A stretch of 59,242 nucleotides of DNA, counting the filler, from Diploschistes diacapsis (Eukaryota), in the NCBI GenBank assembly GCA_023645945.1. It is 6 parts of 6 records of this genome, joined end to end, with 100 filler letters (N's around TTAATTAATTAA, not from the genome) between each part and the next. Parts side by side here need not be neighbours in the genome. Positions count along the whole stretch, not along the records: positions 39,594 to 49,368 come from JALAIB010000996.1; 5 more parts are not named here. One strand, 5' to 3'. A program made the translations under genes and the position numbers. The notes beneath the pieces were generated by a model that was given only the letters and a program-made list of their open reading frames with translations, did not search any database and had not been told where the DNA came from. Shown here one piece after another: positions 1-49,368 of this stretch; position 1 is the first letter of the stretch; every line of letters starts with the position of its first letter.

Positions 1-189
1 ATATACGTCTCTGGATTAAAGGCCAATCTCATATCGAAAATAAAAGTTATATAAAAGAAATTACGGGGGAATTTTGATTAAAATGGCTTATATTTACACG
101 ATAACAACGGACGGATCATTCTTATATTAAAAAAAATAGAATCTATTACTCGAACAAGATTATAAAAAAGACATACGTATAAAGCAATA

Positions 190-4500: not shown

Positions 4501-5239
4501 GCCGTCCTCGACCTCAGCCTCGGAGTCAAACCCGTCCCAAGGGATCTCTTGAGGATCGTGAGCCACCTCCGACCATGTGCTCAAACGTTGGCGTCTCTTG
4601 ATCACTGGGTTGCCCGTGTCATCCACCTGAAGCGGCCTTTTGAGACCGCTCCCTAACACCGCGTTTCGTTGATTGGCCTGAAGTTGCGCGGGTAGACCAT
4701 CGGAAGAAGTAGACTCAAGCCTCTCGTCCCGAAGCTCATCTGAAAGTTCCCGGTAATTCAAGGAGCTGCCTGGCGCAAAAGAATCAGGGGTTGACACATC
4801 CAAGTCCTCATCACTCTCTACGCTCTCATTTGAACTCGGAGGTGCGTTCTTCGACACACTTCGCTTAGATGCTTTCTGTCGGCTTATGTCCTTCGAGCTT
4901 CGTAGTAAAGAAGTATCAAACTTCGCACTCCCTAATTTCTTAAGCAATTCCAGGTTCTCTTCTTTCCTTAATTTGGTATCCTATGCCTAATTCAGCATTC
5001 TGCTGTGCCCAGGCCATAACGCAACTGACGATGTAATGATCGAGTCGTTTCTTTTTCTTGCTCGACATGTTAGGCTGCTGGGACCGAATATTCTCCCGAG
5101 CTTCCTCATGCTTTCGCTTCCTAGTTGCTTGATCGGGCGGAAGTATTTCCACCGCATTTGGGTCATGGTCACTTCCAGCATGCTTAGTTTCCTTTTTTCG
5201 AACTTTGTGCTTCCGCTCTCGTTTTTTATATGGAGCCAT
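1521..5239 (-). CDS. DHR1: DEAH-box RNA helicase Dhr1/Ecm16 (DHX37), 3 exons
   Basis: Motifs GATGSGKTTQVPQF, TQPRRVAA, IDEAHER, MSAT, ATNVAETSITIPGI and QRAGRAGR. Lys-rich N-terminus SSKKKKRLDHYI. Introns at about 4981-5029 and 2972-3030. Confidence 0.93.
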
Positions 5240-6443
5240 TATGCGAGTAGTTTGGCCGCTCACTTCCTATAGCGATTGCAATGTCATCGTATCGTGAGCT
5301 CTAACAAGACCTTTTGCGACTTTCTGCTTTTCATAAGCGTTGAAGCATGTTTTGTCGATGTCGGGCCACTACTGGAATTATTTTTGACATTGGAATCCAC
5401 CGGAGTTTAGCCGAACGCTCAGCCCTACGGTCTTGATAGATCTTCATCTTCCGTGCTGTACCAATCGATGTTACATATTATCAAAGGACGAAGCCGAGAT
5501 TGATATCCAGTCCGCACACTGTGCAGCAGTCTCCCGCGTGAAAATGCTCCGCGATTTCAAGACGTGCTTTGAAGGCAGTACTTCGATTTGCATGGTAAGC
5601 AGTGGGCTCACAGGTTGGCATAGCTCAGTTATGCCTTGGTTGACTTTCAATATGAGACCTGTGCAACAGCTCCTTTGCTAGGAATGACTTCAATCGCCAT
5701 AGCAGTTTTTAAAGGGATCATATCTTCACAGCGACCGGTCATATTTGCCCGCTCCTGGTAATATCCTCCCGGTGACTGGATCTCCGCCAGCATTGCGCCG
5801 ACGTTGAAAATCACAGCGGCTCTTTTTGAACAGCTCCAAGCGCCTGTTCTCTGCATGCATTGCTACAGAGCACCAGGGCCCTCGTCCGAACTGCCTCTGT
5901 AGCTGTGTTCTGATTCATCCAAGGCTACATCAGAGGCATACCCATATCTCGCGAATAATACAAGGGTGTCGGAGCGAAGTTCAAGTTAAGCGCCGTGATT
6001 CTACTATTCTACGTGACCCGATAGCAACACTACTACTCGATTTAACTTTTACCAGTCTCACCTCGATACTAGCAAGCCTCTTCTCCAGCATCAAATATTC
6101 GAGCCATATAACAAAAGCATGTCAGGTAGATTCACTCTCTTCCTAAGATGTCCGTGAAGCAGTGCTTACACAAGTTCCTTCGCTATGCGCTTTCTTTTCT
6201 TTACTAATTGCGGTGCTTTCTACACGCACCTTTGGGTGCAACCAAGTGGTTTGGGACTGCGCTGAATGCTCTGGTGGGTACATTAGCGGTGTTTCCAGCG
6301 ATCGTCATCGACCCCGCTATTCAAGAAAGGGTGAGAACTTGAAAGCTTTGTGTACATGTACTGGATAGAACTTCAATATACGCGAACAGGAGCAGTCAGA
6401 GCATAATTCTAGTGTCAAGCAAAGACCATTCCCTAGAGGAACC

Positions 6444-9825: not shown

Positions 9826-9925
9826 NNNNNNNNNNNNNNNNNNNNNNNNNNNNNNNNNNNNNNNNNNNNTTAATTAATTAANNNNNNNNNNNNNNNNNNN
9901 NNNNNNNNNNNNNNNNNNNNNNNNN
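9826..9925. other. Artificial contig linker N44-TTAATTAATTAA-N44
   Basis: Exactly 100 bp with a six-frame stop cassette. Identical at five positions. Confidence 0.98.
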
Positions 9926-11320
9926 CCCATAACCCACAACCCTCTGTCCCCACCTACTCTGCTCCCAACCCCCTGGAACACCATGACCGTCCCGTTCCCC
10001 GCCACGCTTGCACTCGCCGTCGGTCCACTTCCACTTCCAGGTCCGTTCCCACTCCCCACCCCCGCCGAGCTCGTACCCGTCGTCTGCGCCAACGCCGCCG
10101 TCGACCTTCCATCCACAATGACATCTCCACCTCCCGGCACGAGCGAGAACGTGTCCGGCCCGACCGTCACCGCCGGGCCGCCGGGCGTGAGCGTCTGCCC
10201 CGAGAGAACGAGGTCGGAGCCCGTGGCGGAGAGGGTGAAGAGCTGGCCGTCTGCGGAGAGGGTCAGCAGCGAGGCGGTGGCGATGGCGTCTGCTGCTGTC
10301 GCCGCGGCTGCAATAGGCGGTAGGGCTGTGGTGTGGCCGTTTATGACGATGCTGCTCGCTCCGGGAGGGAGGGAGTACGTGGTGCCGTCTACGGTTATGG
10401 GCGAGCCGCCTGGTGTCAGGGTCTGACCGGAGATCACCAGATCCGGGCCCGGGTCCCCACCGTTGGAGGCCGGGATCGGGGTGAATGTGGCGCCGCCTAC
10501 GGTGATGGGCGTATCGGGGTTGGGGACAGGGGAGTTGGGGTTTGAGGGCAAGGGGACGGTGGAGGAGCCGTCGATCACGATGCTGCTTGCGCCGGGGGGG
10601 AGAGAGTAGATTGCTCCTCCGACCATGATGGGCGAGCCGCCCGGTGTAAGGGTTTGGCCGGATATTATCCAGTCGGTGCTTGAGCCAGGACCAGAGCCTG
10701 CAGGTTGGGGGGTAAATGTCGCGCCAGCCACTGTGATTGGGGAGGAGCCGGAACCTGCCATGGGCGTGGGCACTGGTAGGGCTACGGTAGAACCGCCGAT
10801 GACAATTGAGTTGGGCAGACCTCCGCCGCTACCACTGCCACTACCAGAGCCAGGGGCAGGAAGAGATATTGCAGTGCCGGAAACGGTCATGGCTGGGCCA
10901 CCTGGTGTGAGGGTCTGACCGCCCACAGCGACACCAGAGGGAACGGGCGTAAATGTTATGCCCGAGATGGTCACAGCTGACGGTGGGGAACCACTGCCGT
11001 TACCGTTGCCGCTACCGGGAACCGAAGGGGAGCCAGAACCTGGAAGGGCGATGGTCGATGAGCCGACGACTACGGCTGTCGCGCTGGGAGCGAGGGAGAC
11101 CGGCGTGCCGGAAATAGTTACAGCTGGAGCGCCGGGCAATATAGTGTTGGTGCCAATGATCAGAGCCGAGCTGTCGAATATAGCTGTCGCAGAGCCAATC
11201 ACGAGCGGTGCAGGAGGCGGAGCCGGCGTGATGCCTGGGCTCGCGGCGGGGCCCGCGGGAGATGGCTGAGAGCCCGACTGAGAGCCTGGACCAGAGCCCG
11301 AACCAGAGCCCAAATCAGAG

Positions 11321-11375
<55 letters not shown>

Positions 11376-13167
11376 CAGAACCAGGATCACTACTACCAGG
11401 ACTTGAACCGGAGCCCGATGAACCTGAACCGGAACCAGAACCAGAGCCAGGATCTGCCGGAAGGCCTTGCGAGGGTGTTGCTGCCCACGATTTCTGAGGC
11501 ACAGGGTTGAGCGAAGCAGCAGGTGAGGGGTTGAACATGCTCTGCGTTGGCTGGGTATCAGGTACGGGCTGGGGCGACGCAGGTGTGGGTGCTGGGTCGG
11601 GCGCCTGAGTCGTGATCCAGAGGGAGCCTTCAGGCGTCAGAGGTTGCGGCGGGTCCCACAGGTCGCAGCCGGGAAGCCAGCAGCTTGCGAACGCCGGATC
11701 GAGGGCCTGAATCTGCGTCAAAGGCGCAATGAACGGCTGGTAGCCGCAGGATCCGTCGTTCCAGCCGTTCCTGTAGAGAACGTCTGGAGGCGGACAGGGT
11801 AGGTCGTTGAAATCCAAGGCTCTGGTCGAACCCACCCGAAATTCCACGGTTGACAGTTCCCCGGGCAAAAAGCTATACCTGATGTTGCTGTACGAGCCAC
11901 CAACTCTACCGCACTCGCCTTTGCCTGCTGTAGCGTAAACACTTGCAAGTTCAACGTAGATGTAGGGCGAGGTATAAGTGAAACCATCAGACCCGACTGC
12001 GTAGTTTATCTGAGACCCGCCGTTTCCGTTGCTTACCGTAACTGCGGATTCGTCCGCAGCTCTGCCTATAATTGGTAGCTCAGAGTACTGTTGCGGAACG
12101 AGGTAACTCTCTGTGGAAGAGGTCATGCTTGTAGTGGTGGAAGTATCCCGAGGAGTCGAAGTGTGAGGGGTCGGGCTAGGGGTGGTTGACGAGCCTGGAA
12201 CATCCGTAGAAGAAGGCTGGCCCCCTCCATTCTGCTCCGTGGTTGTCGGGCCAAGCGGAGGGGTATAACTGGGCATAATCGGAGACGAAGAACTTGGGAT
12301 ATTTGTACTCGAACTTACGGCAGCCGAACTTGTTGAGATGGAAGCAGGCGAGATTGACGAGGTAGCCAGCGAACTTGATGGCGTAGCTGTCGAACTTGAG
12401 GATGGCGAAGTTGCAGTAGGTATATTTGAGAAGAACGTGCTGCCAGAGCATGACGCCAGGCAGGCCGTGTTGGGGGTTCCTGAAGGCCAATATCTGATCG
12501 CTGGCCGGAATATGGGCAAGCTGCAGACACCGCAACATCCTGCCAGGGCATCTTGGGTTGGATAAGCGGCAGGATCGGTGAAGGTTGTGGTAGTGGGCCC
12601 GGTTAGGGTAAAGGTGAAAGTAGGGTGAGTGATGACTCCAACCGAATTGGTGTATGAATCTTGTCCCGTAACCACGCTCGTTGCCACGCTTCCAGGAGGT
12701 GCAGTCATTATGAAGACTCCCACAGAGGCAAAATTCGTAAGTACAGAGGTGTTGTGGGCGCTATAATAGGACATGGCGTTCGAAGTACACTGTGACGAGT
12801 TCCGGTAGGGTATGCCGGTGACATTAGGTGTGAAAAATGGAATGGAGGCGGAGAAGACGGTGGAGACATTGCTGGACCACGCCGTGGCGTTTGGCCACGA
12901 TAACGTCTGGGTTGCTGTGACGGAAGTATTGACGGTAAAAGGCGCCGACGATGTCACGGATACGTTTGCACCTGAGGGGTAAGACGATATTGTCGAGGAT
13001 GCTGATATGTTTAGACTGGGTCGGGAGGTGCTTGGCCAGGCTGTACTCGACAGGCTGTTACTGGTAGACCATGTTGTCGAGGAGGACGGACTGGTGCTGC
13101 CAGATGTTGTTGTCGTCGAAGAGTCATTCAAGCTCGTAGAGGCGTTCCCATATGAAAAGGCTGTCAA
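9926..13167 (-). CDS. Large Ser/Thr/Pro/Gly-rich mucin-like cell-wall protein with a Cys-containing central domain and repeated GQTLTPGG modules (start uncertain, C-terminus at contig end)
   Basis: ORF of more than 1070 aa. S/T-rich N-part with many NxS/T sites. Cys domain [10 protein letters not shown]...LPCPP...DPAFASC...DPP. (GS)n linker and several '[20 protein letters not shown]' repeats. GPI-signal-like end. Confidence 0.8.
11255..11452 (-). repeat. Coding (TCTGGC)n hexamer repeat encoding (Gly-Ser)n
   Basis: Tandem ccagag/ccagaa units on the + strand inside the mucin-like ORF. Confidence 0.9.
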
Positions 13168-16134
13168 CAGGTCAATTCATTATCAAGCAAGCTCTCGGCT
13201 AGAAGAACAAACCTTCAGAAGGATTACAGAGAATGGCCGCGAGAAGCCATGGCAGGCTTGACACAAGAGAAGCGTGCATCTTGTGTGGTCTTCAGAGTCT
13301 TGTGACGGACGTCCGGGTAAACAATGAGCGACAAAGTTCAGGGCTTCAACGCAAGACACGGCAACTTCACGTAAAACGGTCATGACAGACAGCACAGCGA
13401 TCAAAGAAGTATGAAAGGTCAAGCAACATGTGGTTATAATAGAAATCTGCTCTACCACTGGCAGTGACATCCTGACGTGTGCGGACAGCAGGTGGGCCTA
13501 CACCTTCTTCCAACGGACTGGGCAAAAGAACGTTCAGCAGCGCGGTCAAAATTGCTGAAACCAGACTTCAATCTTCAGCCCATCTCCACACTCGATGCAA
13601 CGGCAGACGGCGATTGGGCTTGGGCGCGCAGAGTCCACATTGTCTTCGACCAGATATCCGTAAAAACTTTGGTCTGTAAGATTGAGGCTGAGGCACCAAA
13701 GTCTTGATGGAAGTTGCTAGTTCAGCCTTAGACAAGCTTAACAGGCACAGGAACAGGCACAGGAACAGGCACAGGCATAGGCACAGGCATAGTCACAAGT
13801 CACAGCCATCAAAGCTCAATCTCGCCAGAACCTTCTTTTTTAGTCCATGGAGTAAGGACTCCGAGAGGAAGGAAGACTAAGAGATGTTTCTGTTTCTCTG
13901 TTTCTCGTAACATCACGAAAACCAAATGAGGATGCAAGGTAGAGTCTGACCACCGTCAGCCCGTCAGCAAAAGTCGGCACGGCACGATACATGATTGGAA
14001 TGGCCAGGGAAAAAACCCGTGCTCTGTCAGCGTCGGATTTTGACTTGCAAGCCCTATGGATTCAGTCCACGCTCTATAATGTCCCAGGGCTATGCGAGAC
14101 AGGCCACCACCATCTTTTTCAGCCTAGAACATGTTCGTCTGTTCTACGGCGCGAGGCGAGGAGTGGATGCATGGCTTGCCTCTCCCTCATTATCTTCCGC
14201 CGCGGATCTTAGTATGCACGTGGTCTCCTTGCTTAATTGTTTCTCCTTCCTTGGTTTCCACGCCCTCGGGGCTACTTGCTCAATGCGGGCGGGAAACGCT
14301 ATTTGCGACAGTAGGAGGAATAGTTGTCGTTTGGTATAATTGAAGCAGTAAGCCAAGACGGGTGTTTATTTCATCCTCGTTGTCGTTCAACTGTTAGATC
14401 TCCTGCTCCAGCAGCCTAAATAGGTTAGCGCCCGCTGCCGATGTTCACTCTCCGATATTTTTTATTATCGATACTTTAGATCTTTATTAATAGAAGCATT
14501 TTTTCAATTTTTTTTATTAACTTTTTTTGTTTCAATATTTTTTCAAAGTAATCAAATTCTAATAATTACAATCTTTCCTTCATGTATTTTCTCCATAAAT
14601 GTTCTTTGAATCGAATTATCTAGTCAGTTATGCAGCAGCAGCCTAAGCGTTCAGGGGTTCAAGGGTCAACCCTTATAGGGCTGATCTGGAGTGTTTATAC
14701 TCTGCCCATCCCCCCCAGATAGTTTCTTCTCTAGCTTTTCGAATATTGCAGCGCAGCCCTTGGGCACTGGAACAGGGGTACGGAGTACATACCAGGCACA
14801 ATACTGCTGAGGAGAGAACTAAGTGGGAGCACCACAATATGAATTATAACTTCAGCGGCTTTGGATGGCTCTGAACTGATCGAATCTCCAGCAGTGCCAT
14901 TTGTCCATCTGGGACTTTTTTCTGCAGAAGTTACGTGTTATATCCTCTACGGGGTCGTCGCCAATCGAGGAGTAGATTGCTAGAAAGCAATTTCTCAGGA
15001 ATCAACTTCAATTTCCACCCCCCGCATAAAGGCACATGGAAAGATATATGAATGATTGATATATCTGTAACAAAACATACGGTTGTGATAGGAGTATAGA
15101 TTGGATAAAAGCGTTTCCTTTTACCCCCCTTTTTGCTTTAGCCCGCCCTGGGGACAACACCTTCACTTTGCAGAATCATTATTTATGTACAACCAACCCA
15201 CCCTCCAAAACCATTGTTCCATTGTCTATTGTATACGACATCTCTCTCTCTTCAGCAGCCAGAGAATGCTCGTGTAGCCATAGCCCATCTTGCTCGGCAA
15301 ATTAGTCTATAGAATCTTGCTTCAGACCCTCCTCGACCGAAACAGAAACATCGGGAAGGGTTACCATTCGAGAACCAAAAGAAGCTACCTACTTTGTAAC
15401 CGACTAAAACCAAAGGTACCACGCTACTCAAGCCAAAAGTCAGCCCTTCAAACTCCGCAGCCACAATATGCTAAAAATCCAACTGCAATATCGCATATTG
15501 GACTTGCTGCTATTGCCTGATATCAAGCTTCTTCTGGGTGCATGGCACTGTGTGCCGAAACTGCAAATCATCAGTGCTGCCGACGAAGCAGTCCGAAGCT
15601 CCGTTGATTGAATGATTGCCCACCAAAGCCAGAGAGGTAAGTCCATTTTGCGAAGCAATCTGATTGAAAAGAGGTGGAGGAGGTGAACGGAAGAGGCAAG
15701 GTAAGAGCTTGGTAGACATGGGCTGGGCGTAGCTATAGAATTCAAAAATGAAAAAAGAAGGGAGAAGAGAGTGTAGCGTCAAATGTAGTTTGTTGTTTCT
15801 TTGGAAAGGTATCTGAAGTGTTGGCATATTTTACACTAAGTAAGTTACGCGCTCGACCATTGCTTTCAGTTTTTCATGCTCAAGTGACTTCGGTCGTCTT
15901 GCTTCATTAGGGGAGTGATCGTATGCCGAGAACGTCGTAGTGGTTGTAAAGCTTGTGCTGCGGGAGTAGGAACATCAGTTGCTGGGAATGAAATGATGGG
16001 AGTGATTCCATCATCAAGCTGGTATTAAGCAGGCGTGATAGTCAAGGGGAAACGGTGTTGACGGGGTGGGTCGATGAGCTGGAACCCTTGGGTATGGAGA
16101 CTTTGAAGCTCTATCTCGCCGGCTGTCATATGCT

Positions 16135-17303
16135 TCAAGGTTCCAGTGGGAATTCGCTCGGCTCGTGCCTATCTGACCACTCAGTGGTCTCAGCACCGGC
16201 TCCGGCGATATCAGTCCTCATACCGGTCAGTGTTGCGCTAGGGATCTGCGGCAAGTTATGAGTATTGCTTTTGGGCAAGTCATCCATATTCCAGTATTTC
16301 CGCGCCAGCTTGAACCTCCATAGCCTAGAGACCTCATGTCGTGCGGGAGAGTTGTTCGATGAGGTCGCAACGAAATATGAGCGAAACGCAGACATGGAAA
16401 CCATGATTACAGCTATGTTGCATTCTTGCTGTTGCCAGAAACAGCCCCAGACATTGTCTGCCACGTCCCCGTTGAGTTTGATGCCAGTGATCTTAATCAC
16501 AGGTACAATGGCCATGACAAGAAAGAGGCAGAGAGATAACCCCAAGCCAATCTTCTGTCGAAGCTTGAGGTGGACCCTCGAAAGGAGCATGATAGGGATT
16601 GAAATCAGCAAGATATCGCTTGCGATATCCATTGCCACTGCAATGGCAGTATCACGAAGGACGGTGTATGTAGCATCAGGCCCTGAGCATACTGGCAGAA
16701 AGGAACAGTCAGCCATGCTACCAATAGGCACAACAGCACTTACTGATGATTCCATATATGTTGGTATAAGGGCAGGTGAACCAGCTAGCTGCAAGGGAAA
16801 CGAGGCCGGCCAGAAGTGTGAAGACAACCACAAAATACCACCAAATTCTCAGATCTCGGACACGGTAAACCAGCCGTCGGAAGAAGAACAGGAAGGCAAG
16901 CTTGACTTGAAAGATAACAAACCAGTTGATGGTGTTCAGAGCCTCCTCTTCTTTGATAGTGCGCAGAATGTCATTGACGACACCCAGCAGCAAGGTCGGA
17001 TCAACACCATTAAATATCACTGCAAGTAAATCGTACCGGTGTTGCAAGCTCGCAAAATACAAGCCTGTGACGGCTATTAGACAAATAACGGCGAACAGAA
17101 GGATGATGTCGTCGGCCAGTAATTTCTTCAGTATTCGGGCACGGATATAAGTACGAGTTGCATAAGTAATAATGGCAATGCTGAATAAGGTAGCAGTAAC
17201 CCCCTAAAGAGATCATAAGTTTAAACCAGCTGAGAGCAAACAAGTTTGATACCATATTGGCAGCTTCGGCAATGCGTGGCTGGGATAATATGTGCTCAGA
17301 CAT
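16135..17303 (-). CDS. PTH11-like (fungal rhodopsin-family) 7TM integral membrane protein, 3 exons
   Basis: RTYIRARI...ADD, VKLAFLFFFRRL, DIASDILLISIPI.LL....L..RQKIGL and ECNIAVIMVS motifs. Introns at about 17203-17252 and 16693-16744. Confidence 0.8.
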
Positions 17304-17698
17304 GATGAAAACTTGGCGAAATAACACGACGGACTTGAAATCGGTAGGCAAGACTAAAGAGGAGACTGAAAAGAGGACTGGGCAACAGGAAAGCAGAGAA
17401 AAGAAAAGGGGGGGTAAGACTGGCTTAAAGATTCTCTTTCTCTTTCTCTTTCTCTTAATTCGATGCAGTCCCCTGTGTGCTGTGCGATCTCATACGCACG
17501 CAGCAGAAGGCTTGATGCGCCGTGGAGATATTGATAGGTCGGGGTAATATTGCCCATCCTGCAATACTGAAAATAGGACGCGGAACAGCAAAGCGACATG
17601 GAGGCAGTCGGACACTTCTCTGTATAAAATAGCGGGAGGCGGGAGAGCGAGTTTGTAGTAAACAAGACAGCGGACGCAAGCCTCATCGGCCCACCTAC

Positions 17699-19220
17699 AA
17701 TGGCTCAATGGGTCATGGCTCTCCTACAAATTCTTCCACCTTCAGCTGCAACTATTTTGTTATGACTGGTGCTGCTGGATCGGCTCTACACTCCACGGCA
17801 ACCCGTCCCAGGGCCACCTCTGGCTCCCTGAGAAATCCCATATATCGGTATTACCGGGAAATAAGGTATCGTCCAAACGTAATTCATCGACGTCTAAAGG
17901 CGCTAATATATATCTTCAAATAGCGAGAGCTGCAAACACCCGATTTACGGCCTCAAACATGCTCAATGGCAAAGTCCACACCGTGACAGCTCCTGACTTG
18001 GTGACCACCGTTAACCGCAACTCGAAGATTTTGGCTCTCAAACCCTTTCATCGCCTAGATAGCGAAGCGGATGGCAGGCCATGACGAGGCCACAAGCCAG
18101 ATTGTTCAGCGCAACTTGATTGACGTGCACGATAGGATCGGATTTGCGCTATCCTCAGGACCAAATCTTGAGAACATGGTGCGGCCAATGCTTCGGGCAA
18201 TCTCTCCATTTCCGCTTCGCTCAGCGCTACCACCGGAGGTTGAGCTCTTTGCTTGCGCTCGGAGGATGATGACTGTGTGCAGCGTTACAACAATCCACGG
18301 TCTGCCGAATCCCTTCACTGAGCATCCTGATTACTGTGATCTATCCTGGTTAGTATCTACTTATCTTCCCCTATCAACTGGACAGGGACTTCAACCATGA
18401 CCTCAATATGCTGATGGTCGACGTGCTCCCAAGCATCGCGGCACCAAAAGGCGCAAAGGCTCGTTCTGTGCTAGGCAATGCATTTCGAAAGCAAGTTGAT
18501 GATTATGATCCAGATCGAACGCATAGCTCCGCCACACGTGAAATCAAAGTCGACTTAAAGTCGGCACCCTCCTTGACATTCTTGCCAACACCATCCCTAC
18601 AGCTTTGTACATGCTAGTCCATATCTACTCTGATAAGAAGCTGCTCCGGAGCATCCGTGACGAGCTGGAGCCCGCTCAGTTTCGATTCCGGAGAATGCGA
18701 CACAAACGCTGCACGTGCAGAATGTCCGCGAGAAATCACAGCTCATGTCATCAATATGGCAGGAGCTACTGAGAGTCCATGCGCGCGGCGTGAGTAGCCG
18801 TTTTGTCCTCGAAGATACCATCAAAAGATACCTGCTTAAGAAGTATATGGTCGTCCAGGTGCCAATGACAGCCATGCACACAGACCCTGCGCATTGGGGA
18901 AACGGTGCTCAGTCTCTCAACCTCGGGCGTTTTTTGAAGCAAGAAAATAGCCGTCAGGATATCAAAACCAGCGGAGCAGCCTATCGGCCGTTTGGTAAAG
19001 GCACATCAATGTGCCCGGGGAGGCATCTGGTGACTCTGGAGATCATAGCGTTGACGGCTTATCCGGTGCTGCAATTTGATACGACACCGTGCGATGGGCA
19101 ATTGGTCATATCGACGCGGAAGCAAGAGAACTTAGCGACCAATGTGTTTCCTCCGAGATAGTTCTACGTCGAGGCTTTGAAGGTGTACAAGTGGTAACTT
19201 CAATGCTTGGCGAACATTGA
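17699..19220 (+). pseudogene. Cytochrome P450 (CYP7/CYP8-like) pseudogene
   Basis: K-helix QELLRVH and heme motif PFGKGTSMCPGRH in ORF 18715-19161. Upstream P450-like fragments lie in several frames with stops. Confidence 0.8.
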
Positions 19221-19720
19221 GTAATCGGCGGACTGGCCCAGCAAAATCTCAAGTGTAGAAGAAGACAGGATTCCACGGATTCATACAAGGGATTTCAAAA
19301 TCACGCTATTAAAAAATAAATATCTACAGACAATCAAGGACAGTCCCTACTCGGGGTGATTTTCCGAAGTTGCACAGCTGTACAAGCTCCGTTCATCGTT
19401 TTGGGCTCTCCCGTTGCGACAAAAGTGCACTAGAACTAGAAGTAATCGGGAGAATCAAAATGGGGTGTTAATAAATGGATGTGTTGTCGGGAATAAATTG
19501 CTGTCGAACCAAGTATCTAGTTCAGTATCGCAAGCTCCAACACCTCCTCCTCACTCCAACCATTTAAACAATTCTCTCTATCGGGGGCAGCAGCCCAGCA
19601 GAAAGAATCCTCTCTCTTTTGCTTTCTTAAATCCCTTCCCGCCTTCTGGATTTCCCCGATCCCCGATCAAGATCGAAGCCGAGGACTCGATCCCCACCCC
19701 CCGTGTTGCACGTTTGGGTT

Positions 19721-39593: not shown

Positions 39594-40393
39594 CATAGTC
39601 AAAAACAGAAAATTTTCAACCATGATTTGTTGTTGGTAAAATGGACAAAGTCAATAAAAATTATGTTTTTTTAATACAATTTTATTATGCCAATTTTTAT
39701 ACTGGTCAATTGAAACCATGCAAAAATAGTGGAATATTTGATTGGAAGCAAGATACTTTTATTCAAGTAACAGCTCTTCTCAACTTTTGTTGTTTTTAGA
39801 AGATAATACTCTGATTAAAAAGTTCTGCTACTGCTTGATGGTAAATGTGAAGTCAACCTATTGATTGCAAAGGCCATGTGAAGAAGTCAGGATACACCAA
39901 ATCTTACAGTATGTGGAGAAAAGAGGAATAAAGATTGTCACCAAACTGATGCATTTCTTACTGGAAAAGGTATTGGCGACACTTTCTTTGGCTATCTTCC
40001 TTTACCTGTACCTGTTGGAAGTGTCCAAGTCAGTAGCAACAATGTAACAATGCCTTGCACCATTCATAATGGGGCATGGCCTAGATTGGAAGACATGCCC
40101 ACCAACCAAATTCTAGATGCAGGCAAAATGCGCAGTTTTCAGGAGTTTCGAAAACCGAGCTGGCGGGGCTGATGTAAGAGTTATGAGAACTAGACAAAAT
40201 TTCATTTCATTTGTATTGAGCTGGCTTTTTTGTGGTTGGTCGTCACAGTCCGAGATTGTGATTGAATCATCATGATCATCACGAGATTGAATCTACAAAA
40301 GGCAAGAAAAATCTTTTGAATCTTATCACCACTTATGATTTGAAACAGAAATGCATATAAGACATCACAGGCAGGACAGGGTATACTCACGAC

Positions 40394-41728
40394 ATGACAG
40401 ACACTCACGACTCGTTGGTCCAAACACCTGCAGAAACCACTGATTCAACTTGTCATCGATGTCACCACACCTTTCAATCCCCATCAAAACTCAAAAAACA
40501 TCAAACAGACACCAAGAACCCATGCAAGCACGTCGTCAAGGACCATACTTGTGAACACTGCCATGCTTCATTTGAAAGCGAGAAGAGTCTGCAAAGGCAC
40601 CTGCAGCGCAACCAAGGCGTTTGTGTATTGATACAGGAGCTAAAGGCTATGCACAAGAGGGAGTTAGATCAAGTGCACCAAGAGATGGCCGTGCACAAGG
40701 AAGAGCTGGGCAAAGTACAGCAAGAGCTAGGTCTTGCCGCTACAACCGTCCTTGATTTGCAAAATAGACTCAAAGCTGCAACAAGTACCCCAGAAGCTGT
40801 ATCAGAAGCTGCTGAACGGCGGCTGATGCAGAAGCTGATAGACATTGAGCAGAAGGTGACCGATGTTGGCAAAAGCTGGGACATCAAAGCGGCTGTGTGT
40901 CCAGAGACTCATGTGCATACTGCTTTCACAACTTCTGACACGTTTGCTGAATCCTGCGAGTTGTCTATTCCAACAAAGGATGCAACCGTTGATGTCAACG
41001 ACTTCAGGAGCTTGATGAACGTGCCTGGCATTGACGGCCACAGTAATCCAAAGCCTCACCATCTAGAGGATGGTGCTGAAATCGCACGAGCTCAACAAAC
41101 AGCGCATGGGCAAGTTGCCTTTGAAAATGCCAATCTTTTGCTGTCAGCTGAATGCAGAACTGAGACATTAGCAAGTACCACAAGGTTGCAGAGGCAGTCA
41201 ATCCGTGCACACTTTTCTCATAACAAGTTTAAGCAAGAAGACTGTGACTGGACCAATCATGACTGCAAAAAGGTCATGAAGATGTTGGGTATCAAACAAT
41301 GCAAAAAGGAGCCTTGGTTGCCAGACAACTGTGTTTTTGTCAACTTGCTCAAGGAAATTCATTGCAACAAAGACTGTCCCCAGAACTGGAACTTTCTGTT
41401 GCCCTCCATTCAAAGCCCTGTTGTTTGGGTTTCCAATGGCAAGGCCTTCAACAAGAAGGCAACTGGCCGCATGATGTATCAAATGATTGGCCAGCTTGCA
41501 TTACATTTGGGCAGCCTTGAAGACAAGCTTCATGAAGGTATGAAGACCGATGTCATGAACAATATAGAGGGCTACACAGACTACTTTAGGCGATGGGAAG
41601 ATATTGCCAATGCTGAGAGTTGTGAAGGCTTTGAGTCTGAGTTCAACGCCCTGTCAATGCACATCAAGGATGTTCTCTACAAGCACTTTCTGTTTATTGA
41701 GGGTCGCAAGCTAATTGGAGGCCATTGA
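40394..41728 (+). CDS. C2H2 zinc-finger/coiled-coil protein with giant-virus-like C-terminal domain
   Basis: Two fingers, CHRCHHTFQSPSKLKKHQ...C and CEHCHASFESEKSLQRHL...C, then a coiled coil. C-terminal NKFKQED...LLKEIHCNKDCPQNWNF resembles the NxFGxE...IHFNxxxPENHNI pattern I recall from NCLDV proteins. Confidence 0.75.
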   Translation: MTDTHDSLVQTPAETTDSTCHRCHHTFQSPSKLKKHQTDTKNPCKHVVKDHTCEHCHASFESEKSLQRHLQRNQGVCVLIQELKAMHKRELDQVHQEMAVHKEELGKVQQELGLAATTVLDLQNRLKAATSTPEAVSEAAERRLMQKLIDIEQKVTDVGKSWDIKAAVCPETHVHTAFTTSDTFAESCELSIPTKDATVDVNDFRSLMNVPGIDGHSNPKPHHLEDGAEIARAQQTAHGQVAFENANLLLSAECRTETLASTTRLQRQSIRAHFSHNKFKQEDCDWTNHDCKKVMKMLGIKQCKKEPWLPDNCVFVNLLKEIHCNKDCPQNWNFLLPSIQSPVVWVSNGKAFNKKATGRMMYQMIGQLALHLGSLEDKLHEGMKTDVMNNIEGYTDYFRRWEDIANAESCEGFESEFNALSMHIKDVLYKHFLFIEGRKLIGGH

Positions 41729-42316
41729 CTGGGTGTGCTGAGCAAAGCAAAGGGAGCTGTTCTGAGTGCACGCAAATCCAAGGCAAGCATGTACATGACG
41801 TCTTTGAGCTAGCAAATGTATTTGACTACAATTTGATCACAGAAATGCATGGGTATCAAAGTTGTATCATTACATCAAGAACAAATGTCGGAATTGTGCT
41901 CAAAATGCATATAGCAGATGCTGTTAAAGCACCTATCATCATTTCGTGCAAATCGGTTAATGAGTTAATTCACCAACATGCTAATCAAATGTTGTAAACC
42001 CTTCACGACATTCATGCCAGCGACAATGCCTCAACTTTTGTTCAGTCTTTCGGATATCCCATCAGTTGCTCCGGCTTGTCCAAGCGCCTCCATATTATAT
42101 ATCTATATTGACTAGAATAGCTCCAATGCTTCAATGCTCAAAATGTGATAAGCTAATTCACCCAGAGTGTCTACAAATACCCATTTCTGAGTTTACCGAG
42201 CACAGCCATATAGGCCGCAGGTGTCCAAGGCCGGCATGCAGTGTCTTGGGCATCGCAGGGTTGTTGCAAGGGTACATTCAGCGTGACGATGATGCCCACC
42301 AGCATTGGCAGAGTGC

Positions 42317-44440
42317 CTAGCCGATTGATAAGCCTCCAAAAGGCCCCTCACGAATGTTGCATTGAGTTGCAGCAATGTATATGTTGACGGCTGCTTTCTT
42401 ACCATGCGAATGAAACGGCAGTCGTCCCCGGCTACATTTTATTTTTTGATCGACCACGAACATCAATTTGATGTTATATGCATTACAGAGCAATTCTACG
42501 TCGTCTTCACACAAAGGTAGCCTCTCTTGGCTCAAGCAGAATGCCTTGAGGGCCAGCCATGAGCTTACTATTATATTTTTTGTGTCCTGTTCCAGAATCA
42601 CGTTTGAAGCCTGATCCGTCTTGGCATGGTCCTGCAACACTGCCGCCAGATGCTGTACCCGTTGCTTGACTGCGTTGTCCACAGCACAGCACGGCTCAAA
42701 GAACTTTGTGACACCTCCATTCGCTTGCAGCAAATGGCGGATGACAGCATCCACTGTAGTATTGTTGCGTAGGTTGATGTCCTGAAATAGGCGTCGAATC
42801 ATATCACCACGAAAAACCTTGCGGATCCTGTCAGTTCTGTCTTGGCGCAAAATCCTAGTTTTCAACATACTAGAACACACCGCAAAAACGAACTGATCAT
42901 GCCCAGGAGGTACCTCGAATCTAATAGCTTGTTGAAGCTTGCTGTCAGAGCAGACTGTGTTTTTGAAAGTCTTCAGACATTGCTCGATAGTTTCACGCAG
43001 CCTGATCAATCCTTCCAGTTCAGTTTCACCAACGCTCTCTTTGTCATCGCCAAGCGCCTTGAGAGCTTCTTGCTGGACCTGACGCAAAGACTTATGTTGC
43101 GCGACCTTCAACATTTCGTCGATTTCTGAGTTGGTGTAGTTCTCTAGCTGTAGCTGACGACGTTGTCTCTGACTCTCACTGAGCTCTGTCAACAGTTTTC
43201 TGCGTTGATCAGCCTCTTGCTTTTGCTGTGGCGATCTGTCGCTGTCTAAGTTTACCAGTCGTGGCTCTCCTATCTGCGTCACAACCCATCCATCTGCTGC
43301 ATCCTCACCAACCTTTTTGGGAGGCCTTACGGAAAACATTTTGTGGCGTTTTTGATCCTCCGCAAGGACAAGCTCCCACTCCTTATAGCGCTTTTGCGGC
43401 CGTCGGTGAGGGCTATCCTTGCAATTGACTTTGTATCTAAAGCCTATCGGGTGCGGCCCCGACGGCTCCTTGCCGTTCATGTTGACATGGTAATCTCCTC
43501 CCACAACTGTGCAGACTTGGCGTGAAAAGTTGATACCCTCCTTGCTGAATCTATCTTTGGGCATGGCCACCCTCACCTGGTCTCCAACGTGGAATCGGGA
43601 CTTTCGCATTAAGTTGTCGTTGTACATCCCATCTTCATGTTGCTTGCGCAAATAGAATTGCTTGTGACAGTCCCCTTGAAACACTTCGTTGGGTGACCAG
43701 TATTTTCGCTTGCTTTTGGTGCTGCCATCCACACCCTCTTCCCAAGTGAACAGAGACCTGTGTTGCCTTTTATTGTACCAGTCAATAACGTCTTGTAGGT
43801 ATAAACTCCACTTGCCATCAGCGGTTTCTGTCATGTATCTGGCGAGCAGCATCTTGATGGACCTTACAGCTCTGTCAAGAATGCCTAGCTTGTTACCCCT
43901 AGTCTGGTGCTCATCCTCAGATATGAAGTTGTACATTTTGATGGATGCCCCTTGTTCCTGCTCATCCCTTCCTTGCATGTATGCCCCACGCCCATGCGTG
44001 CGATTGAATCTGTGGAAAATTTGGTTGTCAAACTGATCATCAGCAGTCACAGCGCCTGGGGAAGCCTTGTTGGGAACCAAATCCTCCTCAATGATGTTGG
44101 AATATTGTGCCTTGAGGTCATCTCCGGTCGCGCCCCTTTGCGCAGACTTTGGGAACAAAACACGAACAAAAGCCTTACGGCTCACTACATCTATCATCAA
44201 CAGAAATTGATAGCAGTTTTTATTTAGAGCCTTCAGCTCGTTGGGCATCTGTATGACATCCATTTGATAGGAAAACTCTGTCTGTGGGACTATTCTGAAG
44301 AATCTTGCAGGTCGCACATTGGTGCTGTGGTGTAGCTGATTCACTTCAAAATGTTGATAATGGGCAGGGTTGCTGAGCACTTCATTGGCAGCTCGATATG
44401 CGTCATGTCGATTAGTCATTGACTTGTACTGACAGCTCAT
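42317..44440 (-). CDS. Retroviral-like (rve) integrase of Polinton/Maverick/virophage type with long C-terminal extension
   Basis: YQMD(61), FLLMIDVVSRKAFV, VTAD(134), KLGILD(189)RAVRSIK, W..YLQDVIDWYNKRQHRSL, SP.EV, SH3-like FHVGDQVRV...KDRFSKEG..FS and YKEWEL. Intact 707-aa ORF. Confidence 0.85.
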   Translation of the reverse strand: MSCQYKSMTNRHDAYRAANEVLSNPAHYQHFEVNQLHHSTNVRPARFFRIVPQTEFSYQMDVIQMPNELKALNKNCYQFLLMIDVVSRKAFVRVLFPKSAQRGATGDDLKAQYSNIIEEDLVPNKASPGAVTADDQFDNQIFHRFNRTHGRGAYMQGRDEQEQGASIKMYNFISEDEHQTRGNKLGILDRAVRSIKMLLARYMTETADGKWSLYLQDVIDWYNKRQHRSLFTWEEGVDGSTKSKRKYWSPNEVFQGDCHKQFYLRKQHEDGMYNDNLMRKSRFHVGDQVRVAMPKDRFSKEGINFSRQVCTVVGGDYHVNMNGKEPSGPHPIGFRYKVNCKDSPHRRPQKRYKEWELVLAEDQKRHKMFSVRPPKKVGEDAADGWVVTQIGEPRLVNLDSDRSPQQKQEADQRRKLLTELSESQRQRRQLQLENYTNSEIDEMLKVAQHKSLRQVQQEALKALGDDKESVGETELEGLIRLRETIEQCLKTFKNTVCSDSKLQQAIRFEVPPGHDQFVFAVCSSMLKTRILRQDRTDRIRKVFRGDMIRRLFQDINLRNNTTVDAVIRHLLQANGGVTKFFEPCCAVDNAVKQRVQHLAAVLQDHAKTDQASNVILEQDTKNIIVSSWLALKAFCLSQERLPLCEDDVELLCNAYNIKLMFVVDQKIKCSRGRLPFHSHGKKAAVNIYIAATQCNIREGPFGGLSIG

Positions 44441-44559
44441 TTTAAATGCTGTGGTAGTTGTGATACAACCTGTAGGGGATAGTTCTAGGTATAGCTTGCT
44501 GTGCTCACAGATGTCTATATTTCACCCTACACACCTAGTCAGCATGTATGATGGCACAT

Positions 44560-46080
44560 TAGCAAGCCTGTGTCCGCAGACTATTGGTTGACATAGTCTG
44601 TGAAAACAATTCTGTGGGCTGCATGCCAAGTTTAAGCTGGGACCAAATGTCAAGTCCACTGTGCTTGAGTGACGCTCTATTTCACCATGCAGACAGAATG
44701 GAACAGGTGTGAGCTCCAGTCTGCGATTATGCTACCTGGTGGTCAGACAGTGCATGTGCCCCTGTGATTGATAGACACAATCCGCACAGATAAGTCTCTG
44801 GGATGTGCGTCTAGTTCAGCTGTGAGCTCATAGCTGCAGACCGCTGCTGAACTCGGTCTAAAACAAGATTCTTTGACTGCGCATCAATTTCGAATGTTAG
44901 TCACTTTGTCCGTTCCACTGCACAAATATAGGATTGGAGTGGTTCAGCTGTTAGCTCTTGTCAGCTGCAGTCCGCAAAAATCATTTGCTGGGCTGTACAT
45001 CAAGTTCAATGCACTGCTGCTTGTTGAGAGTCTGAACAAGTCTCTTTCTGAGGTGTACATCATGTTGAGGCTGTGAGCACATATCAAGCTCACAGCATAT
45101 CAATTACTTCTTCTGTTCAGCGTTCAATGTGGTTCAGCTGTGAGCTCATCTCTGCAAGCTGTTCCTTGACGCAGTCCGCAGAAGTCAGTCACTGGGCTGT
45201 ACATTACGTTCCAGCACATAGCTTGGTGAAGCTGTCAGCTCATTTCTGCAGGCTGTTGCCTGTCACAGTCCACACAAGTAAGTCTCTAAACTGTACATCC
45301 ACATCAAGCTGTGAGCACGTGTGAAAATGACAGTTTATCAGTCGGATTGTTTCTGCTTAGCGGTAGTCAGCACTACAGCATTCATTGGGGACATCAGCAT
45401 TGAGTACGCTCCAGCTGTGAGCTCATCCCAGACTATTGCTTGACACACTCCGCAGAAATGACTGCCTGGGCTGTGGATCCAGTTCCAGCATCAAGAGTGT
45501 ATGCTCATTTCTGCAGACTGTTGCTTGTCATAGTCCGCACAAGTCAGCCTCTGGGCTGTACATCATGTCAAACTGACAGTCTCTCAGTCATTGTTCTTGT
45601 CTAGCCGTAGTCAGCACTACAGCATTCATTGGGGACATTAGCGTTGAGTATGCTCAGCTGTGAGCTCATCTCTGCAGACTATCGCTTGACACAGTCCGCA
45701 GAAATGATCTTCTGGGCTGTACACCATGTTGAAGCTGAGAGCACATGTCAAGCTGACAGTGTCTTAGTCATTGTTCTTGTTTAGCCGTAGTCACCTCATT
45801 GGGGACATCAGCGTCGAGTATAGCTGTGAGCTCCTCTCTGCAGACTGTTGCTTGACACAGTTTGCAGAAATGACTGCCTAGGCTGGAAATCATCATGAAT
45901 GTCAGCTCATTTCTGCAAACTGTTGCTTGTCACCGTCCGCACAAGTGAGTCTCTGGGCTGTACTGTATACTAGCCACTGTATCTGTTTTGCCATAGTCAG
46001 CAGTAGAAACATTGATTCCCTTGGTTGTAAGTCAAGTTCTAGCATTTAGCATGGTTCAGCTGTCACAGTCCGCACAAACC
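44560..46080. repeat. Degenerate higher-order tandem repeat array (~70-bp A/B units plus repeated spacer)
   Basis: Core AGCTGTSAGCTCATYTCTGCAGACTGTTGCTTGWCACAGTCCGCASAA...CTGGGCTGTACATC starting near 45136, 45230, 45413, 45501, 45656, 45822 and 45901. Degenerate copies lie near 44570, 44770, 44818, 44946 and 46058. Confidence 0.88.
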
Positions 46081-46987
46081 TCTGTGAAGTCTTTTTGCAT
46101 GTTGCTTAATCTCACTAACTATGATGTGCCATGCACCTCAGCTTTGTGCCGCTTTGTAGCCGGTTTTGCATCCTCCAAAATGTGGCTTTGATATCCTCTG
46201 TGGTGCTTTCTAGGACTGCTGACAGATTAGCCAAGTCCTCCAAGATGTCCAAACACTCAATGAAATGCTCAGACGGTTTCTGGCTCATCGAAGTCCGTGC
46301 ACCTTTTGCAGAGCAATTCCTGCAGTCCGCCTTCTACTGGGACCTGTATCCATGCGGCGATCTTTTGACGATGAGCAACACCATATAGATGCAGATCCCC
46401 GTCTTTGATAATCCACATTTTGGCGTTATGGCAAGTTCATGTTGAGGTGCCAAAATGTGAAAGATGCTAGCAAGGTGTCAGCTGGATCAGACAGGCAGCA
46501 GCCCAAGTGCTTCTAGATTGTCTTGATGCAGTACTCCTGACATATCCCATTCCATCATTTGGGTATGGTTGGGCATTGAATGCTTATGTTTGTGTTCTTT
46601 GTGATCGCTGTTGTGTGTGCTGTGATCATCGTGCTTGCTGTGGTCATTGACGACATTTACACTGTGTAACACAGCTGATGAGTTTGATATAGTTACTGAC
46701 CTTGTTGTTCCGCAGTTGTGTTACAAACAGCTATTGTGGATACAAAGTCAGAAATGTACCATTGCGAGGGTACTACGGGCGCTGGGCACTTCTCTTTCTT
46801 CTCCATCTAATGTTGTTTGTTTACAAATTCATTCTGATTTGTTTTGACCTAATTTGCGGTGCGTGGCTCAAGGCGTAGGGTTCTGTGCAAATCGATGACA
46901 GCTCAATGTCAACACCTACAATGTTTGATCTGGTGACATGTGTACAATCAGCTTGCTTCAAAAATGAAGACTGTCTGCTTGGCTGCA

Positions 46988-47075
46988 GTCTGTCAGCTCA
47001 GCTGCAACATGTCAGCTCAGCTGCGACATGTCAACTCAGCTCTCAGCTCAGATGCTACTGGTCAGCTCAGCTGCA
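46988..47075. repeat. Short ~19-bp tandem repeat (TGTCAGCTCAGCTGCRACA)
   Basis: tgtcagctcagctgcaaca-tgtcagctcagctgcgaca-tgtcaactcagct... followed by decayed copies. Confidence 0.75.
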
Positions 47076-49368
47076 CTCTGTTAGTTGTTGAGAGCCTCTG
47101 CCAAGCTTGAACAGCATACCATCCCCAGAACTGTGGGCTGTACTCCTTGTAGCAATTCAGCAAAACATGGTGCATGCTGTCACAGAGCATTGGATTTGCA
47201 GCATGACACCACAGCAGCACAACGACCAATCGCTCAGGGTCATGGCAAACTTGACACAGGTTTCTTACTGAAAACTACAAATGTTCAGAAACCCAATCTT
47301 GCAACTATCAAATATTTCAATGTTCAATTTTTCTACTTTTGCAACATAAGCTGCCAAACGTCTTCGAGTGTTTCAATGTTCTGACACTAATAGTACTGAA
47401 ACAGACCTTCACATCAAAGATCACATGGCGCTCCTTGTGAATGGTGACCAACATGCCAAATGGTGTTGGCCACCATCATGGCCAACATCTCGCTAGACGC
47501 AGTGTCTAGCCAGATGCAGCAGTGATTGGTGTGCTGAGATGTGCAACACATTATTGCATCATCAACTGAGATTGTATGATCATACCTCAAATAGTCACAA
47601 AAGCCGCAAAAGCACGAGGCACAACACCTCTGCACAATGAAATGGCACAATAATGGCGCATCAACATTGCAGAGCAACATCAAACAACAATACCTCACAA
47701 TTGATAAGGAGGCAGAAGACATGAGCAGCAGTCTGACGCCTGCCTTGTCAGCCAAGGTGGGGCGGGAAGGATGCACGCACTCTCTGAACAAGTCAGGAAT
47801 GCTGCATCAGGAGCTGCATGCAACAGCTGCACTCTAAGACAAACACTGGCGCTGGAGCTGCTTGTTGCTATAACGGCTTCCAAGATGATGCCAGCTAGCC
47901 CCCTACATGCCAACAGATCAGCAGCCCTTGATATGATGCCGCTATACCTAGTATGCTTTGGGCATTGTAGCGCAAGGCAGGTCTCAGTGCCTGTGTAGCA
48001 AGGGTGACCAAAGCTGGGACAAGCTCAAGTCGCTGCAGTCTGGCTTTGTTGGTGTCAATCGGCACCAAGAAGCCCAGAGCTCCTGCTCACCATGGCACTT
48101 TCCTGCCCTGCCCATGCCCTTGCCCTGATTGCCCGTGCTGGACCCTGCAGGGAGCGCATAAGTCTAAGATGCCTTCATTGAGACTGCCATGCATTTGTGT
48201 GGCCTGTGTCTCACAGCATTCAGATCTAAGCACTGACTCCACATCTACATCTTGCGTGGGAACGGTTTCAGATCCGGTCTTGAGACCGCTGCTCAGTAGC
48301 ATTTGCACCTGCTGGCAAGCTGCTTCCACAAGGCTTGAGCTTGATGAGCAACACAACACACTCCAAGCCTTGTTGTAGCTGCACAGCAGCAAAATAGCGC
48401 AACGCCGGATCACTGAACCAGTGACTGCAGCTCACCATGGTGCATGGGGATAACATTGCTGTAATGCCTGTCCACGCCGTAGGTCACAGACCAACACACC
48501 AACTATCAAGCACACCAACCATCAAGCACGCCACAAGCACTGAAAAGTAATAAAGTGTTTACGTGTAGCTTTGAGAGCCAATGATTGAACGTCATGGTCT
48601 GCAGTTATGTGTTTAATAGAGTAGGACAGTTATGTATCGAATAGAATAGGAAGCCATGTATCCAAAACGTCTGCCCTAGATTGCTAATGAGTGTAAAGGC
48701 CAGCTGATCCGATTACTCCGAAACCAAGCAATGACGACGTGAATATGGTATATGCCACGTTAAATTGATCATCTATAATTTTCGAACGCTCAACTTGAGG
48801 ACAGCAGCCTGAAACATGACGAGCTGGACAAAGCTGCGTTTGAAAGAAAAAACAAATTTCACTAGCAAAGATGCTACACAGCGCCTTTCAGTCATCGTAC
48901 ATGTCTGTACTGTAGGGAATAATGAGCCTTGCATCCACAAATCCGCTTTGAATCAGCCGTGTAAAGACAGCTGGAGCAGGCACTTATGTAGCAAGCGAAG
49001 AAATTAACTGTCTATCATTTTTCACTGGATTTGAGCATGGCAGTCTGAGATATTATGGTGTCGCTGTCTTTACATGGCCGGTTGAAGGCGGATTTGTGGA
49101 TGCAGGGCACATGAAACCCTGCAGTACACACCTATAGGATGGCTACAATCCCTTCTGCAGCACTGTTGCTTGCATTGTTTTTGGTTTTTTCAAACATGCA
49201 CAGCGACCGGAGTAGGCAACTGTGCAAATGTCTGCAAATGTGTGCACTGTGACAAGTTTGGAAAGTGACAGCCGAATGTTTTGCCTTGACACCGGGCTTG
49301 ACTGATGGTCATTGCGGCTTGAGCAAACTCTGTCAATGATCATCAATCAGTCTTGGTGCTGACTGTAA

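Follow-up and report, generated by a model that had tools for sequence, protein, structure and literature searches.

A truncated copy of an integrase and BAH-PHD gene unit on a probably mosaic contig of the lichen photobiont Trebouxia

The window analysed here is a 59,242-nt stretch from the Diploschistes diacapsis assembly GCA_023645945.1, made up of six ~9.8-kb stretches joined by N spacers. The fifth of these, contig 5 (39594–49368, 9775 nt; JALAIB010000996.1), carries two long open reading frames (ORFs), the zinc-finger-like ORF A and the integrase ORF B, next to a repeat array. An earlier reading of the sequence (the original prediction) took it for a foreign contig with a compact virus-derived integrating element. 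We found that contig 5 comes from a repeat-rich part of the nuclear DNA of a Trebouxia photobiont, and that the conspicuous gene pair arose where repeat fragments happen to be joined. The contig is probably a mosaic of such fragments, among them an immobile copy, its integrase ORF intact, of a low-copy unit formed by an integrase gene and a BAH-PHD gene. The window locus is ordinary repeat debris. It points to a family of integrase-driven elements whose novelty is modest and lies in a variation of known ones.

Host and arrangement of contig 5

The observed/expected ratio (o/e) of CpG is 0.48 in contig 5, compared with 0.78–0.98 in the other five stretches. TpG and CpA reach 1.56 and 1.54 in contig 5 and 0.93–1.18 in the others. 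The tetranucleotide correlation between contig 5 and the other stretches is 0.13–0.64. These values confirm the prediction, made by eye, that this contig is a compositional outlier, poor in CpG and rich in CpA/TpG. The signature is general to the alga and not specific to an element. The host-like flanks of other Trebouxia loci have a CpG o/e of 0.44–0.60, and CpG depletion is genome-wide in this alga.

Protein identity and run content agree with the composition. ORF B has 13 homologues at 84–98% identity, and three of these are named Trebouxia sp. C0009 or C0005 (contigs of at most 721 kb). In the public runs, 14 contain 65–98% of the sampled words of contig 5. Any part of the contig is contained in 20 run rows from 11 studies, several of them labelled lichen metagenome. 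The expectation of a non-fungal host, a green algal partner, is borne out, and what looked like a “foreign contig” is no more than DNA of the lichen's alga. The two convergent, intact long ORFs and the repeat array described before are all present on contig 5.

A scan of metagenome contigs gave 19 loci (L001–L019) with integrase relatives. In 15 of the 19, homology to the window is limited to 42126–44457 or a part of that span, with sharp breaks on both sides. The homology of L009 and L016 runs on into the array, and L004 matches the array in opposite orientation. L001 is 99% identical to the window over 40395–44155 and has the same arrangement. The integrase copies other than that of the window share quite different flanks with each other.

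In L005, the integrase gene (9878–12118, + strand) is followed by a convergent BAH-PHD gene (12115–13272 and upstream exons, − strand), in which Pfam detects a BAH domain (E 6e-8) and a PHD finger (E 1e-5). The BAH-PHD gene also adjoins the integrase in L002/L003, L004, L012 and L013. The more complete unit spans L005 9792–14294 and is at least 4.5 kb long. The truncated window copy (42126–44457, − strand) equals L005 12309–9976. It lacks the left 184 nt, TG end included, and about 2 kb to the right of a break in the PHD finger. The BAH-PHD gene is reduced to a C-terminal remnant at 42126–42320 (+ strand), consisting of half of the PHD finger and the tail (PHD E 4e-5 on window 41985–42317). 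Because the left terminus and the right part are lost, an integrase acting on element ends could not move this copy.

ORF A (40394–41728, + strand) belongs to a fragment of a different unit, containing a zinc-finger gene and a C5 DNA methyltransferase gene. This fragment (40265–42072, + strand) is homologous to L005 1831–4421 at 86–89% identity in blastn. The ORF A homologue of L005 (1925–3415, + strand) is followed by a convergent methyltransferase gene (4379–5467, − strand). On contig 5, the methyltransferase is represented by a 3′ tail at 41959–42072 (− strand) with the last ~9 codons and the 3′ untranslated region, homologous to L005 4308–4421, and a stop stands where the L005 copy has W. 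The two truncated units are separated by 53 nt of filler (42073–42125) without homology to any of the loci compared here. Two truncated gene tails, one of the methyltransferase and one of the PHD protein, thus lie 53 nt apart between ORFs A and B.

The L005 homologues of ORF A and of the integrase share a strand but lie ~6.5 kb from each other, and their convergent partner genes differ. In L004 and L012, the integrase has no zinc-finger gene within 9–10 kb. We found no terminal repeats bracketing the pair of ORFs in the window. The prediction of a reduced two-gene element is contradicted by the L005 arrangement and by the gene tails between the window ORFs. On the array side of the integrase unit, the partners joined at 44456/7 share only 2–3 nt, as read from the sequences, which is what illegitimate joining would leave. 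The zinc-finger-unit fragment, the integrase-unit fragment and the array were probably brought together by illegitimate recombination or deletion.

The array had also been counted as part of the element. It belongs to a separate repeat at 44456–46006, in which 10 copies of a 61-nt unit (61–89 nt in the degenerate array) lie at 44577–45976. The copies are 61–79% identical to the reference copy, are spaced by 75–204 nt, and each contains an imperfect palindrome. This repeat usually has another left flank than in the window, as seen in L004 and in run X2, which has a loose end at 44456. The array does not accompany the integrase consistently, since the L004 repeat is inverted and 3.6 kb away from it and there is none near the integrase in L005 and L012.

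The integrase and its partner gene

ORF B (42317–44440, − strand) is an open frame of 707 aa. The profile and the structure model place a divergent rve integrase with an SH3-like domain at residues ~25–320 and a helical extension at residues 381–707. ORF B does not reach the gathering score of Pfam PF00665 (rve), with no match even at E≤1. A sequence search of PDB gave a chance-level match only, and PHROGs and NCBIfam gave nothing. An exhaustive HMMER search with ORF B found 232 representative clusters at E≤1e-3. The relatives are mostly 300–500 aa long and align to residues ~25–320 at 30–39% identity. Among 45 aligned relatives, 25 touch PF00665 weakly (best E 3e-7, all below the cut-off of 32.6 bits), three carry a C-terminal chromodomain and one a PHD finger. 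With the family profile, the Ty3 integrase is matched at E 4e-4, and the alignment takes in the “GD.V” stretch of its C-terminal domain. The “F.VGD.VR” tail, which had been said to typify Polintons, aligns with this Ty3 stretch and is not diagnostic.

An AlphaFold model built on the family alignment has a per-residue confidence (pLDDT) of 80–97 over most of residues 40–300. The model, confident over residues ~40–320, combines an RNase H-like core with a downstream SH3-like domain. In a Foldseek search against PDB, 133 chains were matched at E≤1e-3. The top matches were the integrases of prototype foamy virus (PFV), Ty3 and Rous sarcoma virus (RSV), at E 1e-7 and weaker. Among predicted viral structures, the best match was “Integrase [MELD virus sp.]” (E 6e-11, TM score 0.64 on the target), and the mavirus rve integrase ranked third (E 4e-8). 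MELD viruses are midsize eukaryotic linear dsDNA viruses. Both the MELD-virus and mavirus integrases outrank retroviral Pol proteins, and the identity to the viral fold matches is only 15–17%. The language-model (Atlas) neighbours of ORF B are mostly virus clusters of Nucleocytoviricota and Preplasmiviricota (score 0.96), which we treat as a lead only.

The putative catalytic triad consists of D61, D134 and D189, which are kept in 49, 50 and 47 of 52 sequences, respectively. The third position aligns to the catalytic E of Ty3; it is D in 47 of the 52 and E in none. In the first 59 residues of the same sequences, no column with ≥50% Cys/His suggests an N-terminal HHCC domain, and the model has two short helices there. 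Judged by its predicted fold and conserved residues, ORF B is a real but divergent rve-type integrase, with a D-D-D triad and without an N-terminal zinc finger. The assignment to rve-type integrases made at first sight is supported by profile, fold and triad, with mavirus and MELD integrases among the top viral fold matches.

The integrase is under purifying selection, with a dN/dS of 0.23–0.30 between intact copies. The C-terminal extension of ~330 aa (residues 381–707) is poorly modelled. Only close relatives, of Trebouxia type, were found for it, and its dN/dS is 0.36–0.40. For the BAH-PHD gene, dN/dS among copies is 0.38–0.42. A complex prediction with the C-terminal part of the integrase and the BAH-PHD protein scored 0.00 with alignments unused, and carries no weight either way.

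Some contigs of RNA or presumed RNA runs cover this region. Run X15 has contigs at ~99% identity over 40581–44288, including both ORFs; it is RNA only by guess and has a very uneven depth. Contigs of a polyA metatranscriptome match 41850–43936 at 90–95% identity. They come from other copies, because they run on into BAH-PHD sequence at 42134. The window integrase ORF is intact and probably transcribed. Parts of the contig without cover in RNA runs were given no evidential weight, and strand and level are not readable from contigs. The polyA contigs of related copies show gaps of 80 and 81 nt at window 42514–42728, within the C-terminal extension. We regard these gaps as variants between copies rather than introns, because they have no GT..AG ends on either strand.

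The L005 unit begins with TG (TGACCTCC...), and its last letters are ...CAGTCA. Three flank contexts that are unrelated to each other, namely L005/L007/L018, L004/L015 and L012, show the identical left end TGACCTCC. The flanks of the L005 unit read ...TGGTG / unit / TGGTG..., a 5-bp duplication seen in one copy only. The search for further copies, target duplications, terminal inverted repeats (TIRs) and capsid or pPolB genes that had been proposed was rewarded in part: further copies were found and the L005 copy has the TGGTG duplication, but no TIR was found in the L005 unit and no capsid or pPolB gene was found by Pfam. In intact units, the integrase would process the TG...CA ends and insert the DNA at a short staggered cut, from which a 5-bp duplication would result. 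Chromatin targeting may be provided in trans by the BAH-PHD protein, where relatives have a fused chromo or PHD domain.

Several of the assemblies contain more than one copy, up to three, with differing surroundings (L006, L015 and L016 in JAABUP; L004 and L012 in JAABUK). The copies in L012 and L003 are decayed by frameshifts. At L004 11049–11657 (− strand), a BAH-PHD copy has an internal deletion that removes the PHD finger. At L015 10729–19474, an integrase copy is cut after 279 aa by a long interspersed nuclear element (LINE) with endonuclease and reverse transcriptase in a 1159-aa ORF (12716–16192). Further along in L015, at 17681–19474, there is a GCR1_C protein with a neighbouring 319-aa ORF, which we take to be a Crypton-type element.

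Compared with known systems, the algal integrase has the same fold as those of mavirus-type virophages and Polinton/MELD-type viruses, with an SH3-like domain after the RNase H-like core, and these are its top viral structural matches. Its relatives sometimes end in a chromo or PHD domain. It differs from the viral enzymes in that the third catalytic residue is D and not E and that an N-terminal Cys/His motif is missing. In contrast to the viruses, virus-defining genes were not found by Pfam around the algal copies, whose flanks are unrelated. The long TIRs and the 6-bp target duplication of Polinton/Maverick elements do not occur here, as the L005 unit has no TIR and the single duplication is 5 bp.

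The unit would work in the manner of Ginger-type integrase transposons. According to PMC6839031, Ginger termini are 5′-TG...CA-3′, target duplications are 4 bp for Ginger1 and 6 bp for Ginger2 and GingerRoot, GingerRoot has TIRs of 100–150 bp, and Ginger1 has TIRs as well as H2C2 and YPYY motifs. Like Ginger1, Ginger2 (TDD) and GingerRoot as described there, the algal unit is small, has an rve-type integrase as its only enzyme and has TG...CA ends in the L005 copy. Unlike them, it has a 5-bp duplication (one copy), no TIRs, no Cys/His motif and a BAH-PHD gene as its second gene. Long terminal repeat (LTR) retrotransposons of the Ty3/chromovirus type share the profile match to the Ty3 integrase and the idea of a chromatin reader that guides integration. 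The algal unit differs from them by having no reverse transcriptase and no LTRs, and its BAH-PHD reader is a separate convergent gene and not a fused domain. We found no direct terminal repeat and no reverse transcriptase in the unit; the reverse transcriptase of L015 belongs to the inserted LINE. Literature searches turned up no description of an integrase and BAH-PHD element in Trebouxia; for green-algal hosts, the lists of elements in PMC10120064 may be relevant.

Transposon, host family or viral remnant

In the low-copy Trebouxia family, a BAH-PHD reader accompanies a virophage/Polinton-like integrase, and no other viral component does. Tentatively, the unit may be an undescribed small DNA transposon of lichen photobionts. 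It would descend from the integrase of Polinton-like viruses or virophages and would have shed all virion and replication genes. A D-D-D enzyme would act on TG...CA ends, the element's own BAH-PHD reader would steer integration, and activity would persist in some copies. A mobile family would add to the cases in which an integrase has left a virus or retroelement and become a minimal transposon. It would also offer a natural test of reader-guided integration in which the reader is supplied in trans.

Several observations weigh against a mobile unit with these ends. The 5-bp duplication was seen in a single copy and may have arisen by chance. The right end was seen in only two contexts, L005 and L002/L003. 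It has CA in L005, and in L002/L003 only if the end is read ~10 nt past the blast break. It also falls on the start codon of the BAH-PHD gene. Beyond its truncated copy, L012 continues with a stretch homologous to L005 14514–15007; the unit may therefore be longer or differently bounded. Beyond TGAC/GTCA, the L005 unit has no terminal inverted or direct repeats (alignment scores 20 and 17; shuffle mean 19, maximum 25). Copy number is low, with a summed contig depth over the integrase of ~1–4x that of its neighbours, and no empty site was found. Some of the “copies” found across the metagenomes may represent orthologues from separate algal species, and the RNA status of run X15 is only a guess.

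The same low copy number, together with the absence of terminal repeats, the purifying selection on both genes and the presence of related copies in polyA RNA contigs, would also fit a host gene family. In this case, an integrase-derived gene and its BAH-PHD neighbour would have been domesticated and spread by segmental duplication, and the window would hold a rearranged paralogue. The constraint on the Trebouxia-specific 330-aa extension (dN/dS 0.36–0.40) points the same way. However, the same TG... left boundary occurs in three unrelated flanks, and frameshifts, internal deletions or a LINE insertion disrupt a number of the copies. All three predicted catalytic acids are kept as well, as would be expected of an active enzyme. 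We therefore consider domestication unlikely. A compact, self-contained two-gene element of integrase, zinc-finger gene and array, built from giant-virus mobilome parts as originally proposed, is far less probable still. In its favour, the two ORFs at the window locus are convergent and uninterrupted and may both be transcribed, L001 has the same arrangement, and many runs contain most of contig 5. But the simplest view of L001 and of these runs is that they represent this very locus in the same algal species. The separate placement of the two genes in L005 and the lack of a zinc-finger gene near the L004 and L012 integrases speak against such an element, as do the truncated tails of two other genes between the window ORFs, the missing terminal repeats and the inconstant position of the array.

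The unit could also be what is left of a degraded endogenous Polinton-like virus (PLV), virophage or giant virus, with integrase, zinc-finger protein and methyltransferase as leftover accessory genes; the genes for capsid and replication would then have decayed or be located outside the contig. The MELD-virus and mavirus fold matches favour this, as do the Atlas neighbours (as a lead only) and the prokaryote/virus-type, M.HhaI-like methyltransferase with a CpG o/e of 1.04 within 6 kb of the integrase in L005. According to PMC10120064, rve integrases and methyltransferases are usual cargo of such endogenous viruses. For the flanks, Pfam scans covered 12 + 95 ORFs from six loci, the 95 being drawn from 159 ORFs of ≥100 aa in seven loci; ORFs scanned before, antisense ORFs inside known genes and L010 (a duplicate of L007/L018) were left out. 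Capsid, pPolB, primase-helicase, packaging ATPase and protease were matched by 0 of these 107 flank ORFs and by 0 of 32 ORFs of contig 5, with the limit that Pfam detects PLV capsids poorly. This agrees with the earlier remark that no pPolB, ATPase or capsid gene is visible. The matches obtained were host-like (ferric reductase, DUF1232, DUF6737, PDDEXK_3, IIGP-type GTPase) or belonged to other transposons (LINE endonuclease and reverse transcriptase; the GCR1_C protein of the Crypton-like element). Between the methyltransferase and the integrase of L005 there is no ORF of more than 137 aa. Pattern scans of IMG/VR for the integrase, its relatives and the zinc-finger family gave no relative confirmed by tblastn, although such scans are weak, needing near-exact short peptides. 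The stronger argument against a virus is that the flanks of independent copies are unrelated beyond the ~4.5-kb unit. Since these flanks carry host-like genes or other transposons, contig 5 is also unlikely to be the edge fragment of an endogenous virus, as had been suggested, and we regard a viral remnant as improbable. A mosaic of repeat fragments with an immobile integrase-unit copy remains the reading that we favour for contig 5.

Other features of contig 5

The ORF A product of 444 aa contains two weak C2H2 fingers and a coiled coil, and a conserved domain of unknown fold makes up its C-terminal part. It scores 20.9 bits against Pfam zf-C2H2 in two stretches (E 5e-4), below the gathering cut-off of 25.2 bits, and the CxxC...HxxxH spacing is visible in the sequence. 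PHROGs and NCBIfam have nothing for ORF A, and its AlphaFold model is poor (pLDDT 44.8). A database search found 16 homologues, and dN/dS against the L005 copy is 0.40. The label “giant-virus-like” given to this zinc-finger protein was not substantiated, as its relatives were found only on metagenome or NCBI contigs and its Atlas score to virus clusters is only 0.88.

Both long ORFs had been called intronless. Their DNA frames are open, but one X15 contig skips a 152-nt stretch of ORF A (40856–41007, + strand; joint 40853->41006, cut +2) with GT..AG ends, a possible intron. Its removal shifts the frame and leaves a product of 162 aa.

The L005 methyltransferase (362 aa) is intact and matches PF00145 (E 2e-33), M.HhaI (E 1e-16) and TIGR00675. 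Its CpG o/e of 1.04 compares with 0.34–0.69 in everything around it, host-like DNA included. A C5 methyltransferase gene of prokaryote/virus type with undepleted CpG thus sits in an algal genome in which CpG is strongly depleted. The gene may have been acquired recently from a virus or bacterium, or may be protected from methylation.

A 17-nt array motif, GTTGNTNGTCACAGTCC-like, recurs at 40235–40251, just upstream of the zinc-finger unit, and at 43657–43673 in the integrase ORF; chance is possible. Contig 5 also has a tandem array of a 19-nt minisatellite at 46968–47093, which is dispersed in many Trebouxia loci. Most integrase copies have the minisatellite (CTGTCAGCTCAGCTGC-like) nearby, at distances from a few hundred bases up to a few kb. 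Its sites include L004 3109–3442 and 13589–14187 and L005 7123–7427 and 9266–9605, with others in L007, L010, L014, L018 and L019. The minisatellite may be favoured as a target, or it may just be a satellite of high abundance. Window pieces at 46585–47209 recur in other loci.

A 775-bp insertion/deletion difference spans 47615–48389, where contigs of X6 (DNA) and X15 join 47614 to 48390. No TIR or obvious duplication was found at its ends. Among the further stop-to-stop ORFs of ≥60 aa on contig 5, 2 of 32 match Pfam, one being the PHD remnant and the other a weak EF-hand_Zip match. Searches for tRNA and Rfam families gave no match on contig 5. Outside contig 5, window positions 1–1000 have a GC content of only 0.34, consistent with the earlier remark on a transposon mutated by repeat-induced point mutation at that place.

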